Below the pieces are notes generated by a model. That model was given only the letters and a program-made list of their open reading frames with translations. It searched no databases and was not told the origin of the DNA. From Escherichia phage Eryne, in sequence record PQ529420: a DNA stretch of 64,000 nt. One strand, given 5' to 3'. Position 1 is the first letter of the stretch; every line of letters begins with the position of its first letter. Both the position numbers and the translations under genes were made by a program. Below, one piece after another: positions 8,012-12,673 of the stretch.

Positions 8012-8371
8012 ATGTGTGTTCCTCTTAGCAGTCCACTGCTGTTAGAATTTTACAAAGCATGGATGGAAGATCATTCCTCAATGCATCGTGAGAATGTTGG
8101 TTTGTGTAATTGCCTTATGGATTACCTGGCAACCACTATGTCAAAGAAAAAACCTACGGAAGAAGATATAGAATATTTCAAGATGGTTCGTAGCAAAACG
8201 CTGGAAGAGATGAAACTGCAATTCACGTGTGCTGGGCTATCCTCCTTCCTACCCTTTAATTATGATCTTCTGTGTTATGAAGATGAAGGTAAGACACATT
8301 CTTGCCATACCAACCCAAAGAGATTGCAGTGGGTGAAAGATCGTATTGCCGATTCATGCAAGGGTGTGTAG
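8012..8371 (+). CDS. Cys-rich paralog family member A (hypothetical)
   Basis: track ORF 7955..8371 with start moved to ATG behind AAGGAG; shares FYxxW, GLCxCL, PFN and H-T-N..RLQWV-DRI motifs with ORFs at 8518, 10811, 12089. Confidence 0.55.
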   Translation: MCVPLSSPLLLEFYKAWMEDHSSMHRENVGLCNCLMDYLATTMSKKKPTEEDIEYFKMVRSKTLEEMKLQFTCAGLSSFLPFNYDLLCYEDEGKTHSCHTNPKRLQWVKDRIADSCKGV

Positions 8372-8372
8372 A

Positions 8373-8528
8373 ATGTTGGAATTGATTGGGATAGTTTGGT
8401 TAATGATAAAAGCAGGTTTCGTCGGTTTCGGACTTCTTATAATTTTGTGTATGTTCCTTAGTGCAATACAGGCATTCTTTTATCTGCTAGGTAGAATACT
8501 TAAGTTAGGAGGTGATCATGAAAAGTAA
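8373..8528 (+). CDS. small membrane protein (51 aa)
   Basis: internal ATG of track ORF 8346..8528; two hydrophobic segments. Confidence 0.4.
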   Translation: MLELIGIVWLMIKAGFVGFGLLIILCMFLSAIQAFFYLLGRILKLGGDHEK

Positions 8529-8886
8529 TATTCCGTTGAGTAGTGCAGCTTTAATACGATTCTATAAAGCATGGATTGCCAACCATCCTGCAATGAATCG
8601 CACAACGAGTGGCTTATGTGGTTGTCTGGTAGATTATGTAGATGATTTTGTTGGTGAGGTAACTAGAGAAGAAGATAAAAGATGGCGTGATCGTTTGTTG
8701 GATAGTTTGAAATACGAAATGAGGAAACAATTTACATGTGCAGGACTGGACTACAATCTTCCGTTCAATGCAGATTGCATGGATTACCTTTCAGAGTGTA
8801 TAGACTTGGCGTGTCATACCAACACGTTACGTCTTCAATGGGTGAAAGACAGAATCGAAGATGCAAATAATGCTTGCATTGAATAG
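8518..8886 (+). CDS. Cys-rich paralog family member B (hypothetical)
   Basis: ATG with AGGAGG RBS; motif set shared with 8012, 10811, 12089. Confidence 0.55.
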   Translation: MKSNIPLSSAALIRFYKAWIANHPAMNRTTSGLCGCLVDYVDDFVGEVTREEDKRWRDRLLDSLKYEMRKQFTCAGLDYNLPFNADCMDYLSECIDLACHTNTLRLQWVKDRIEDANNACIE

Positions 8887-8957
8887 AAATGCCTGTACAC
8901 TGTGTTCCATAAAATATGCAATATCGCGCATAACAAAACTACTAATGAGAGGTGTAA

Positions 8958-9416
8958 ATGAAAACTGTATCTTTGTATCTTGCTAACACGGAGCGTGTAC
9001 ATAATCTTGTAAAAGAATGCGGTGTGAGTGTTCAATTTAACATAGGAACGCCTTCCGTGGTGACAGGCAGTGAGATGTGTGTTATTGATTTCATCAATGA
9101 ATATTTTCGTGGGAAGCCTATTGCTCGTCACTTCATTCGAGAAATGCGAGATGTACAACAGGATTATGAATTCTACCCAGAAATTTGTGAACGCTATGAA
9201 ACGATTCTTAGTTCTGTAGAAGATCCAGATACCAGTGAAACAGGTGTTTCCCACTTGCTGTGGATGTTGAATGAAATTCAGGATGGGTGTAATGGTATGT
9301 CTGAAACCAAACGCCATCGTTGGTTAGGCTATATTCAGGGTGTTATGGTTATGAAAAACCTTATTACAGTGAATGATGAACGTAATGCTACACGCCCCGT
9401 CTTTAATGGAGCATAA
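8958..9416 (+). CDS. hypothetical protein (152 aa)
   Basis: track ORF; RBS GAGAGG upstream. Confidence 0.55.
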   Translation: MKTVSLYLANTERVHNLVKECGVSVQFNIGTPSVVTGSEMCVIDFINEYFRGKPIARHFIREMRDVQQDYEFYPEICERYETILSSVEDPDTSETGVSHLLWMLNEIQDGCNGMSETKRHRWLGYIQGVMVMKNLITVNDERNATRPVFNGA

Positions 9417-9417
9417 C

Positions 9418-9633
9418 ATGAAAAGCATTCAGGTGTGTATTGAAAATAATTGTGGTTATCTGGGGTTGACACACGTTGCTTTCCCTCTTATGTTAGATGC
9501 CGATATCGCTTACAGTGGAGTTGCTTATGTGTCATTCAAGACAATGAGCCAAGTACCTGGCTGGAAGTGGGAAGTAGTTGATGTTGTTGAAGGAGAAGAC
9601 TATGTTTTCCTTCCACACGAATATACTGTTTAA
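9418..9633 (+). CDS. hypothetical protein (71 aa)
   Basis: internal ATG of track ORF 9373..9633, immediately after previous stop. Confidence 0.45.
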   Translation: MKSIQVCIENNCGYLGLTHVAFPLMLDADIAYSGVAYVSFKTMSQVPGWKWEVVDVVEGEDYVFLPHEYTV

Positions 9634-9649
9634 AAAGAGGAAAAGAAGA

Positions 9650-9826
9650 TGGATAAACAAACTACTGTGTACTTAGTAACAAAGAATACCCCAGGCTGGA
9701 GCCAATGCAGCACTGTACCTTACAAAATCTGTGCAACATTAGAACTAGCACAACGTGCAGAAGCAGAAGTGAATGCCATGCAATACAGCTATGGTGAAAT
9801 CATTCCGTTTACCCTTGAACAATAAG
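9650..9826 (+). CDS. hypothetical small protein (58 aa)
   Basis: ATG with AAGAGGAAAAG RBS; not in track. Confidence 0.4.
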
Positions 9827-10801: not shown

Positions 10802-10810
10802 GGAGAAGTC

Positions 10811-11179
10811 ATGCAAGAGAATAGTAAAGTGTGTAGCATGAAAAGCAGCCCTTATTTGCTACAATTTTATGAGTGGTGGTTAGAACAAGAAGATACAAAC
10901 TTTAGTAAAAAGCATTATGGTCTTTGCACGTGTCTTGTAGACTTCTTATACAATATTGCTTTGATAAAAGATGTTGAGAATGTAGCAAAGCTCCAATCCT
11001 CTGTACGAGAGGAAATGAAGGAACAATTTAAGAAAGCGGGTTTGAACCATTTACATCCGTTTAATACGGATTTCTCGCACTACTTTACGGAAACAGAACT
11101 AGGCATTGCACACCTTAATAAAGAACGTGTACAATGGGTGATTGATCGTATTCGTGATATGGAGGAATACAATGGTTAA
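10811..11179 (+). CDS. Cys-rich paralog family member C (hypothetical)
   Basis: track ORF; RBS AAGGAGAAG; shares FYxWW, GLCTCL, PFN, RVQWVIDRI motifs. Confidence 0.55.
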   Translation: MQENSKVCSMKSSPYLLQFYEWWLEQEDTNFSKKHYGLCTCLVDFLYNIALIKDVENVAKLQSSVREEMKEQFKKAGLNHLHPFNTDFSHYFTETELGIAHLNKERVQWVIDRIRDMEEYNG

Positions 11180-11381
11180 GTTTAAAACTTTCTGTGCAAT
11201 CACTGTTTGTCTTATTCTTGCATACGTGTTATTCTCTAGTATCATTCGTTTAGGTGAGTATATGGCAAGAGAAGCTCGTGAAAGTGAAGCTAAAAAAGAA
11301 CAGTGCATCGTGTTAAAGCACCAAAGGGATGCTGAAAAATTTCTTGAACAGGATTGTGGGCGCTATGTGAATTATAATTAG
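11172..11381 (+). CDS. membrane-anchored small protein, paralog of 16170..16394
   Basis: ATG with GGAGGAA RBS; N-terminal TM helix; C-terminal KEQCIVLKHQRDAEKFLEQDC resembles KEKCIILKHKKQAEDFLKNKC in the paralog. Confidence 0.5.
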   Translation: MVKFKTFCAITVCLILAYVLFSSIIRLGEYMAREARESEAKKEQCIVLKHQRDAEKFLEQDCGRYVNYN

Positions 11382-11390
11382 GAGGGAAGT

Positions 11391-11639
11391 ATGTTAGATA
11401 TTTTTACCTTTGATCGTGTTGGTACACCGATTACCGAAGAAGAACGTACCAAAATTGAACAAGAATTGGATGCTTTACGTGCGTCTCTTACAGACACAGC
11501 CTCACTACAACGTGAAGCTGCACATCTCACAGAGATCACTGGTATTCAGTGGAGCACGGAGTGGGTTGTAATTACAATTGAAGCGGATATTTGGGGACAT
11601 GAAGAGACGCTACGTACCGGAGTAGTAACGGTTTGGTGA
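11391..11639 (+). CDS. hypothetical protein (82 aa)
   Basis: track ORF; RBS TAGGAGGG. Confidence 0.55.
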   Translation: MLDIFTFDRVGTPITEEERTKIEQELDALRASLTDTASLQREAAHLTEITGIQWSTEWVVITIEADIWGHEETLRTGVVTVW

Positions 11640-11685
11640 TAGATGTTATTCTTTTGTGTTTCTTGATATATAAATAGGAGGGTTT

Positions 11686-11910
11686 ATGGTAAAACGTCTG
11701 GAATGGGATGCGTGTACTGCTCACGCTTGTCACTGTGATATTGTTGAAGATCCTAATGGAGAGATGGTGTATTATGAGGATTACGAAGCATTGCACAATG
11801 CTGTGATTGCTTTACTGGATGATATTAGCTCACGCTATCCAGGACAACAATTCACGTGTCCACATATCCAACTATTAGCCGAACTTACGGAGTATCCAAG
11901 TGTTCCATAA
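11686..11910 (+). CDS. hypothetical protein with CDIVEDPNGE motif, paralog of 17055..17318
   Basis: track ORF; RBS TAGGAGGG; shares C-D-I-V-x-D-P-x-G motif. Confidence 0.5.
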   Translation: MVKRLEWDACTAHACHCDIVEDPNGEMVYYEDYEALHNAVIALLDDISSRYPGQQFTCPHIQLLAELTEYPSVP

Positions 11911-12088
11911 TATGGGTGTCCCTGAACAACTGCTCTTTATTGTAGGATTAGTAGGCTTATTGGCGGCTGGCGCTAAAGCCGCTTCTCACACGCATCACAT
12001 AATGTTAAGATTTCTATTCCTACTCCCTTCTATCCTCGTACTATTAGTCATACTGATCGATAACATTTTGCACAATTAAGGAGAGGTT

Positions 12089-12673
12089 ATGAGTAAAATT
12101 ATACCAAGCAGTTATGAATTATTACAGTTTTATGTGTATTATATAGACTGGGTTAGTAGATTGAATGTTAAAGACAATGCGATGTTTAGTAAAAACATCT
12201 GTTTAACAGAAAGTATCTTCCGTTACTGGCACACAGGTAGAAAGTGTACACACAGTGAAGCTATGCGCATTGTAGGAGAATATCTGGAGCAATTGCAAAA
12301 AGCAGAGCTACCTGTCCTTCACCCATTCAATGAATCTAAAGAAGAATTAGAACAAGAGTGTAGAGAAGGTAAGTGCCATTTGAATGAAAAACGTATCGAA
12401 TGGGTGAGGCAACGTTTAGCCGATGCAGGAAAGACTCCTAGTGACTCTGACTATACGTGGTATGATGTAGAGGGTTTAGTTCAAGGTTTTGAGGCTTGTG
12501 CTATAGATAATACCAACTTTGCCAAAGTTTTATGCGAGGCTTATGACCTGGCAGATAAAATCCGAAATCATGGATGGAAACAAGAGCATAAAGAATCATA
12601 TGAACGCCTTGACAAGATTTTCAAACAGATCTATTCTAACCACAAGAAGATGTTCCAAATGGAGGATGTGTAA
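12089..12673 (+). CDS. Cys-rich paralog family member D, extended C-terminus (hypothetical)
   Basis: track ORF; RBS AAGGAGAGG; shares LLQFY, PFN, CH-L-N..RIEWVRQRL motifs. Confidence 0.55.
   Translation: MSKIIPSSYELLQFYVYYIDWVSRLNVKDNAMFSKNICLTESIFRYWHTGRKCTHSEAMRIVGEYLEQLQKAELPVLHPFNESKEELEQECREGKCHLNEKRIEWVRQRLADAGKTPSDSDYTWYDVEGLVQGFEACAIDNTNFAKVLCEAYDLADKIRNHGWKQEHKESYERLDKIFKQIYSNHKKMFQMEDV

Follow-up and report, generated by a model that had tools for sequence, protein, structure and literature searches.

Introduction

Several groups of described proteins bear on the multigene family that is the subject of this work, four members of which (paralogs A to D) are encoded between positions 8012 and 12673 of a 64,000-nucleotide stretch of DNA from Escherichia phage Eryne (sequence record PQ529420), the whole of which is referred to below as the window. 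The DNA mimics Ocr and ArdA, together with nucleotide sponges of the Acb2, Tad1, Tad2 and Sequestin types, are small, soluble, acidic and early accessory anti-defence proteins of virulent phages, with a variable repertoire and copy number. The family resembles them in being small, soluble, acidic, accessory and variable in copy number and, to judge from genome position, early, but no similarity in sequence or fold to Ocr, ArdA, Acb2, Tad1/2 or the Acr families was detected in PADLOC, PDB and structure searches. Its proteins (isoelectric point, pI, 5.2-6.1) are also less acidic than the strongly acidic DNA mimics Ocr and ArdA.

With respect to named phage proteins, the domain extends along the entire length of N4 gp3, the gene for which follows gp1/gp2 on the early strand and can be present as two tandem genes; it differs from the genes studied here in being present in one or two copies, rather than as a four- to five-member set, and is 21-35% identical to A-D. 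We found no published function for N4 gp3, and literature searches (using PHROG identifiers, DUF551, N4 gp3, the phage genera in combination with anti-defence, and transcriptomes) returned no published study of any family member. A-D belong to the family covered by PHROG 2510, 27059 and 6418, each labelled 'unknown function', i.e. labels that reflect clustering only and carry no function, structure or mechanism.

Ea22 proteins are mosaics with interchangeable, mostly acidic C-terminal domains, which are expressed very early (PMC10834534). The family studied here is similar to Ea22/Ead and DUF551 proteins in that its domain is a portable module found in multi-part proteins, and genes annotated as 'Eaa-like' in phi92 follow D; it differs in that A-D do not match Ea22/Ead (PF13935) or DUF551 (PF04448) (Pfam, E<=1; two sub-threshold chance hits only). 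No Ead_Ea22 Pfam match was found in the fusion proteins of the family, among which DUF551 is confined to P0095 and Av05_0048, fused there to the family domain, and the solved C-terminal domain of lambda Ea22 was not among the structural matches. An anti-TIR protein, Atd1, has been reported for Phapecoctavirus and Justusliebigvirus (PMC11724313), the same phage genera, and is a MazG-like nucleotide pyrophosphatase (bioRxiv 10.1101/2022.06.09.495361); given its MazG-like nature, i.e. a different fold and family, an Atd1 identity was rejected for A-D.

The safest statement on A-D is that they belong to an uncharacterised, phage-restricted, early-region accessory multigene family. The explanation that we favour, with a probability of roughly one half, is that they are expressed genes of an old, phage-restricted, five-helix family that serves host takeover or defence neutralisation via binding.

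Results

Four paralogs in one probable early block

An earlier note on this DNA, made from the sequence alone, had described four open reading frames (ORFs) with a shared, ordered set of motifs. Their coordinates were right, and the genes are real paralogs:

8012..8371, plus strand: paralog A, a complete family domain of 119 amino acids (ORF with ribosome-binding site; phrog_2510, E 7e-22)
8518..8886, plus strand: paralog B, a complete family domain of 122 amino acids (ORF with ribosome-binding site; phrog_2510, E 4e-24)
10811..11179, plus strand: paralog C, ortholog of Phi92_gp006, 122 amino acids (ORF with ribosome-binding site; phrog_2510, E 9e-26)
12089..12673, plus strand: paralog D, ortholog of Phi92_gp010, 194 amino acids (ORF with ribosome-binding site; phrog_27059, E 1e-138; phrog_2510, E 4e-17)

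An AGGAG-type ribosome-binding site stands 5-7 nucleotides before the ATG in all four genes, and the alternative longer starts (7955 for A; GTG at 8512 for B) do not have proper spacing to such a site. Pairwise BLASTP comparisons give E values from 7e-35 to 2e-8 (A-B, 47% identity, E 7e-35; A-C, 40%, 3e-26; B-C, 37%, 5e-21; D against A, B and C, 4e-9, 2e-8 and 4e-10, respectively), and the order of the motifs is colinear across the A-D alignments. The profile matches of all four to phrog_2510 (E 4e-17 to 9e-26) cover the whole domain, and the match of D to phrog_27059 extends over residues 1-194. A hidden Markov model (HMM) of A-D, which recovers its own members at E 1e-44 to 1e-61, did not find a fifth copy among the 627 six-frame ORFs of at least 40 residues in the window (next match, E 0.16); a broader 45-sequence HMM found the same four only.

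The motif set is complete in A and B, whereas C has A-H where the others have C-H, so that only Cys99 is missing from it, and D departs further, with N-I-C-L-T in place of G-L-C-x-C (Thr substituting for the family Cys) and QLQKAEL in place of QF..AGL (Leu at Phe72, Glu at Gly76). D is therefore a degenerate member, without the Gly32, Cys34, Phe72 and Gly76 of the motif set. (Residues are numbered according to B throughout, and conservation figures refer to 158 diverse domains of the family.) The description of the proteins as Cys-containing holds for A and B, with seven Cys apiece, but this is incidental; the sole family-wide Cys is Cys34, which is present in 97% of the domains and is replaced in D.

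A large family almost confined to phages

An exhaustive HMM search of 1.84 billion representatives returned 1130 proteins at E<=1e-3 and 382 at E<=1e-10, these representatives standing for clusters at 50% identity. The typical member is a stand-alone protein of 100-125 amino acids. Tandem two- or three-domain proteins, which keep the motif set in each repeat, account for ~9% of the top representatives, and a few members are fused to DUF551 (P0095; Av05_0048 of phage Av-05) or to long N-terminal regions without a Pfam match (e.g. P0135, P0146, P0160 and P0173). Every named member carries the annotation 'hypothetical', and the phAPEC8 copies likewise match phrog_2510. The earlier note had not recognised the family, and the database searches bear it out: Pfam, NCBIfam and PADLOC scans of A-D gave nothing above threshold, the same was the case for Pfam on 45 diverse members, and PDB sequence searches with two family profiles gave no match. 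Weak matches to ATG11, DREPP and Crl were sub-threshold and were rejected as chance hits.

Searches by tblastn found the family in 174-261 phage records, depending on the query. The named hosts are all Proteobacteria (Escherichia, Klebsiella, Rhizobium, Erwinia, Salmonella, Burkholderia, Ralstonia, Achromobacter, Pseudomonas and Xanthomonas). Only 2 of 72,556 plasmid records matched, compared with 261 phage records, and one of the two is a 145.7-kb replicon of phi92-like size. A scan of bacterial genomes, limited to a single peptide pattern and hence uninformative, gave one 367-bp contig, and E. coli chromosomes, queried with the single fusion gene P0160, gave 38-nucleotide matches only. In the collections searched, the family is almost confined to phages.

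Some of the records are of interest in their own right. Four 'Campylobacter phage' records (MG065639, MG065645, MG065656 and MG065689) match these E. coli phage genes at 93-99% identity, and a family member is also present on a 145,657-bp 'Phocaeicola massiliensis plasmid' of phi92-like size (PLSDB record OY726034.1); these records are probably mislabelled or contaminant phi92-like genomes.

Position at the left end of the genome

The best megablast matches to positions 7900-12800 (121 phage records) are E. coli phages of the Stephanstirmvirinae, 97-98% identical, including Nernie, Paula, PATM and phi92/phAPEC8 relatives; the window is from a phi92/phAPEC8-like myovirus. In PATM all genes of the region carry a hypothetical annotation. 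Three features define the surroundings of A and B:

7364..7706, no strand: equivalent of the phi92 left direct terminal repeat, i.e. the physical left end of the packaged genome (left terminal repeat annotated at 1-343 in phi92)
7926..8835, plus strand: extra block of 910 bp with A, a small ORF and most of B; no counterpart in phi92
8346..8528, plus strand: hydrophobic 60-residue ORF with a TTG start, between A and B and overlapping both (from the ORF list; no PHROG match)

Positions 7364-7925 of the window align (97%) with 1-565 of phi92, in which gp001 is annotated at 699. The window therefore spans the joined genome ends, with 6239-7363 being the right-end region and the assembly circularly permuted with respect to phi92, and A starts ~650 bp from the physical left end. 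A is preceded by ~1.7 kb of AT-rich non-coding DNA, and the layout in phAPEC8 is alike, two family genes (0018 and 0019) coming after a 1.5-kb gap. On the other side of the extra block, 566-641 of phi92 aligns with 8836-8911 of the window, which places the right breakpoint of the block inside the conserved QWVKDRI motif of B; a remnant in phi92, at 563-613, encodes the last 17 residues of B. The small ORF within the block is 45% identical over 42 residues (E 2e-9) to the N-terminal part of the metagenomic protein P0032, where that part is fused to a family domain, and is probably a real gene for a small membrane protein.

Homologs occupy comparable positions in other phages. N4-like gp3 is a full-length family member (HMM, E 9e-16; phrog_2510, E 7e-24), and in N4-like contigs the family gene lies on the early strand, directly after gp1/gp2 and ahead of the RNAPII genes. 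Both gp1 and gp2 are transcription cofactors according to the N4 literature, which counts them, the gene following them and the RNAPII genes among the early products. Gene 5 of the T7-like phage JG068, located 2.2 kb from the left end, belongs to the family, and in Rhizobium and Ralstonia podoviruses the family gene is 0.4-4 kb from the start of the record. Because the genes adjoin the equivalent of the phi92 left terminal repeat, and because homologs lie in the early regions of N4-like and T7-like phages, A-D very probably belong to the earliest-expressed block; position thus supports the assignment to an early block that had been made from the sequence.

Two of the N4-like contigs show further features of note. 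In both L007 and L009 a gene with Phage_gp49_66 and Sequestin Pfam domains lies ~5 kb from the family gene, at the same genome end, and may mark an anti-defence neighbourhood. On L009, a 79.6-kb replicon of Caballeronia sp. TF1N1 (CP084632.1), an N4-like gene set (gp1, gp2, RNA polymerase and a family member that has an additional N-terminal region) occurs together with genes of the Rep3 and ParA types; the replicon is possibly a phage-plasmid of N4-like type.

Old lineages, purifying selection and mosaic exchange

Consistent with the earlier proposal of a multi-copy family, both repertoire and copy number vary between relatives: there are two copies in phi92, four in the window, at least five within 15.7 kb of phAPEC8, at least five within 24 kb of WPEC4 and two, in tandem, in an N4-like contig. 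At least nine lineages can be distinguished in the subfamily, with 94-100% identity within and 21-51% between them. By megablast, A is present in 34 phage records and not in phi92, and is hence accessory within the genus; B is present in 110, of which 77 have it at full length and the others as remnants; C and D are present in 55 each, at full length in every case. Some 32 relatives carry both A and B, neither of which is in phi92.

The same proposal had the copies as fast-diverging, which the orthologs do not support. C is 97.5% identical to phi92 gp006 at the amino acid level, C and D being 97-98% identical to gp006 and gp010, and B is 91% identical to phAPEC8_0019, neighbouring early genes being 28-68% identical between these genera. 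By these comparisons B represents a lineage common to Justusliebigvirus and Phapecoctavirus and is the best-conserved gene of the early block. The ratio of nonsynonymous to synonymous substitution rates (dN/dS) for orthologs is 0.25 for B, 0.21 for C and 0.29 for D, and 0-0.12 for four of five neighbouring genes, the fifth having zero synonymous differences; with few substitutions per gene the test is of low power. These values indicate that the orthologs are under purifying selection, and positive selection was not seen (dN/dS 0.2-0.3) with this low-power test. Since paralog pairs are saturated at synonymous sites, the duplications must be old. The copies are thus old, individually conserved lineages, with variation arising via gain and loss and via mosaic exchange.

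That the genes instead have a role internal to the phage, for example in the switch from early to middle expression, in replication initiation or in the handling of genome ends, is unlikely in our view. It would fit with the fixation of C and D in all 55 close relatives, the conservation of B across two genera and the syntenic place of the N4-like homolog, immediately after transcription cofactors gp1 and gp2. Yet the family occurs in N4-like, T7-like and phi92-like phages and in siphoviruses, with unrelated transcription and replication strategies; copies are freely gained and lost, as A and B show with respect to phi92; the domain is a portable module fused to DUF551 in Av-05 and to long N-terminal regions in metagenomic proteins; and the proteins are acidic without a DNA-binding signature.

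Exchange between lineages is evident from chimeras. P0002 combines the body of A with the tail of B, P0236 has a 0018-like N-terminal half and the C-terminal half of B, and P0233 is 51% identical to B overall with an identical tail; the breakpoints of chimeras and deletions lie within the conserved RLQWVKDRI motif. The lineages differ from one another in two segments, residues ~38-62 (end of helix 2 to the start of helix 3 in the model described below) and ~85-104 (helix 4 and the following loop), which move as blocks and are swapped within the B lineage. Recent gene conversion among the copies in the window was rejected, the longest identical nucleotide runs being 9-11 nucleotides. The mosaics, the breakpoints inside a conserved 3' motif and the variable presence of copies between relatives are also what a selfish or neutral cassette would produce, i.e. 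one that spreads by recombination within a hypervariable terminal stretch and has little function under selection. We regard this as very improbable given the purifying selection on orthologs, the conservation of the motifs over more than 1000 clusters, the confident fold prediction and the strong ribosome-binding sites; moreover, Pfam and PHROG scans found no nuclease or homing gene adjacent to the copies.

Predicted fold and conserved residues

An AlphaFold2 (AF2) model of B, made with 13 homologs, has a mean predicted local distance difference test score (pLDDT) of 92.2 and a predicted template modelling score of 0.84, and contains five helices (residues 10-20, 33-45, 51-74, 87-95 and 103-121). 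Foldseek comparison with the PDB gave a best E of 0.93 and a template modelling score of 0.28, i.e. no solved structural neighbour, and the structural matches in BFVD are uncharacterised phage proteins only (from Wc4, JG068, Palo, BcepSaruman, RG-2014 and KP8). The proteins are small, soluble and mildly acidic (median pI 5.3), and a DNA-binding signature was not seen.

The ordered motifs comprise Ser9, Leu12, Phe15, Tyr16 and Trp19; Gly32-Leu33-Cys34; Glu67, Gln71, Phe72 and Ala75-Gly76-Leu77; Pro82-Phe83-Asn84; and, in the C-terminal part, Tyr90 and Glu93, then His100, Asn102, Arg105, Trp108 and Val109. Conservation is as follows:

Pro82, Arg105: 100%
Tyr16, Phe83: 99%
Cys34: 97%
Gly32, Phe72, Trp108: 96%
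Trp19: 95%
Gln71, Asn102: 91%
Glu67: 89%
Ser9: 85%
Tyr90: 81%
Glu93: 80%
His100: 69% (Tyr, 13%)
Cys99: 50%

Position 36 is Asn in 73% of members. The motif residues are either spaced i, i+3, i+4, i+7 along one face of a helix or located at helix N-termini, an arrangement which suggests that they form a buried scaffold network, i.e. a fold signature. Cys34 is replaced by Thr in D and by Lys in the Av-05 fusion; since D is nonetheless present in 55/55 relatives, with a dN/dS of 0.29, the Cys is not universally needed. A zinc-binding or Cys-rich protein was rejected, there being no set of three to four conserved ligands; only Cys34 is conserved, and Cys74, Cys88 and Cys99 vary even within the B lineage.

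The same residues permit the main alternative, less probable in our view, in which Tyr16, Cys34, Glu67, Gln71, Pro82-Phe83, His100, Asn102 and Arg105 form a single ligand-binding or catalytic site. The proteins would then be sponges or enzymes, with a small molecule shared among Proteobacteria as their target (for example an immune signalling nucleotide, an alarmone, an NAD-derived product or a haem-type cofactor), and ligand specificity or oligomeric state would set the paralogs apart. The very high conservation of polar and aromatic residues over such diverse domains is in keeping with this proposal, as is the occurrence of His or Tyr at position 100. In the model the Cys lies at the N-terminus of helix 2, and a helix N-terminus is a classic position for a reactive thiol. 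The tandem fusions with a motif set in every repeat hint at a homo-oligomeric unit, as in known sponges, fusions to long N-terminal regions without a Pfam match are also compatible with it, and the persistence of the motifs in phages of many host genera implies that the conserved part addresses something universal. The spacing of the motif residues is, however, that of core-facing helix positions, no complete set of metal ligands is conserved, and D, though retained in all relatives under purifying selection, has Thr, Leu and Glu for Cys34, Phe72 and Gly76, with Lys for the Cys in the Av-05 protein.

The breadth of conservation also bears on the idea that these genes track variable host targets, which the earlier note had taken from their apparent rate of divergence. 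For the conserved part this is not borne out: the motif set is kept in 158 domains from phages of hosts ranging from Escherichia to Rhizobium and Burkholderia, and this part therefore does not depend on a target that varies between strains.

The C-terminal extension of D and the gene downstream

D has been described as carrying a 70-residue C-terminal extension; its length is instead ~79 residues (116-194). D and the gene that follows it are made up as follows:

12089..12433, plus strand: N-terminal family domain of D, residues 1-115 (phrog_27059, phrog_2510; AF2 pLDDT >90 over residues 1-113)
12434..12673, plus strand: C-terminal extension of D, residues 116-194, a three-helix module (BLASTP to phAPEC8_0042; AF2)
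12673..13359, plus strand: gene for a 228-residue protein, Phi92_gp011, 'potential Eaa-like' in phi92 (phrog_28884, function label unknown)

After a linker, AF2 predicts helices in the extension at 127-140, 144-161 and 165-188, with pLDDT 55-77. A word-indexed homology search with the extension gave no candidates; tblastn and BLASTP linked it to phAPEC8_0042 (75 residues; phrog_25020), to which it is homologous and colinear over the full length (BLASTP, E 1e-7). In phAPEC8 this is a separate gene immediately downstream of the family member phAPEC8_0041, a comparison that identifies D as a fusion of a family gene with a neighbouring gene. Such a fusion implies that the two modules are functionally linked. 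The ATG of the 12673-13359 gene overlaps the stop codon of D, and Pfam gave sub-threshold matches only for its product. Between B and C, the 150-residue ORF at 9837-10289 (ortholog of Phi92_gp003) has a weak match to phrog_2980, 'goF mRNA metabolism modulator' (E 3e-6), and is matched better by families of unknown function.

Non-coding terminal region

The last gene before the non-coding end region, at 5855-6238, encodes a T4 gp30.8-like protein (PF06019, E 2e-28); a strong hairpin resembling a terminator lies behind it, at 6254-6272. An Rfam scan of the non-coding region upstream of A gave no matches. Fur-box-like sequences are clustered in the terminal non-coding region between 6480 and 7660 (at 6483, 6541, 7176, 7182, 7437, 7626 and 7632), the best of them, GCAAATGATAATCATTATC at 7437, having two mismatches to the E. 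coli Fur consensus, which we take to be GATAATGATAATCATTATC. Allowing up to five mismatches, 7 of the 14 matches in the window lie within the 1.8-kb terminal region, compared with 0.15 expected from shuffled sequences. The sites are members of a family of repeats of 29-37 nucleotides, and equivalents are present in phi92 (74, 263 and 269), in PATM and in the phAPEC8 gap. The cluster may reflect iron- or Fur-dependent control, or titration of Fur, at the early control region. Other repeats in this region are a 16-nucleotide unit, TAATCATTTCATACAGTAA, in three tandem copies at 6854-6904, and AAAGGGGTGTGT(C/T)(G/A)AAA, which occurs twice, at 7773 and 7850 (within 7773-7866), each time directly upstream of a promoter-like site before A.

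Discussion

Our preferred explanation for A-D, i.e. host takeover or defence neutralisation via binding, can be set out as a series of proposed steps. The family has expanded in phi92/phAPEC8-like phages, where at least nine stable lineages exist, with a different subset in each genome. As the block starts at the physical left end, its genes are probably among the first made after injection, a timing that we infer from position. The conserved motifs would serve mainly as a scaffold for the fold, and residues ~38-62 and ~85-104 as specificity surfaces. The proteins would then most probably act stoichiometrically, by binding cytoplasmic components of the host in the early phase of infection, leading to host takeover or to neutralisation of defence, with separate lineages addressing separate partners.

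Several observations weigh against this explanation. We found no contextual or experimental tie to a host target or to a defence system, and the family was not found in the leading regions of conjugative plasmids (72,556 plasmid records), where many anti-restriction genes occur. The gene-wide dN/dS values, all below 1 and based on few substitutions per gene, give no sign of an arms race. Early timing is deduced from position, no transcriptome of the Stephanstirmvirinae having been found in the literature, and burial of the motif residues from their spacing rather than from model coordinates. About a dozen polar residues are conserved across sequences that are ~25% identical, which exceeds the usual need of a scaffold and would fit a ligand pocket or active site. 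Even so, a role in anti-defence or host takeover is plausible and compatible with the evidence from sequence, and early position, small size, accessory status, variable repertoire and mosaic exchange are repeated marks of counter-defence and host-takeover genes.

A bolder proposal, which we consider rather doubtful, is that the family represents a new phage-specific ligand-binding or catalytic domain, the invariant Tyr, Cys, Glu, Gln, His and Arg set of which would trap or alter a small molecule shared by Proteobacteria. Candidates for the latter would include an immune second messenger, an alarmone or a haem/iron cofactor, with the lineages in one genome covering different ligands. If this were the case, N4 gp3 and phi92 gp006 and gp010 would be founding members of a new class of counter-defence or host-reprogramming proteins, and the Fur-box-like sites upstream would be of interest for a link to iron status.

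The family, one of early accessory phage genes, offers solid candidates for an experimental screen and does not amount to the discovery of a new mechanism. It is nevertheless a family of more than 1000 clusters without a Pfam entry, a solved structure or a published function, which is present in the first-expressed region, as judged from position, of several model or therapeutic phage groups, i.e. N4-like, T7-like, phi92/phAPEC8-like and rV5-like phages. Natural near-isogenic variants are at hand, in the form of phi92 without A and B and the ~32 relatives with both. Assignment of a function would annotate hundreds of phage genomes, and could explain differences in host range among phi92-like phages, which are isolated and tested as candidate therapeutics.

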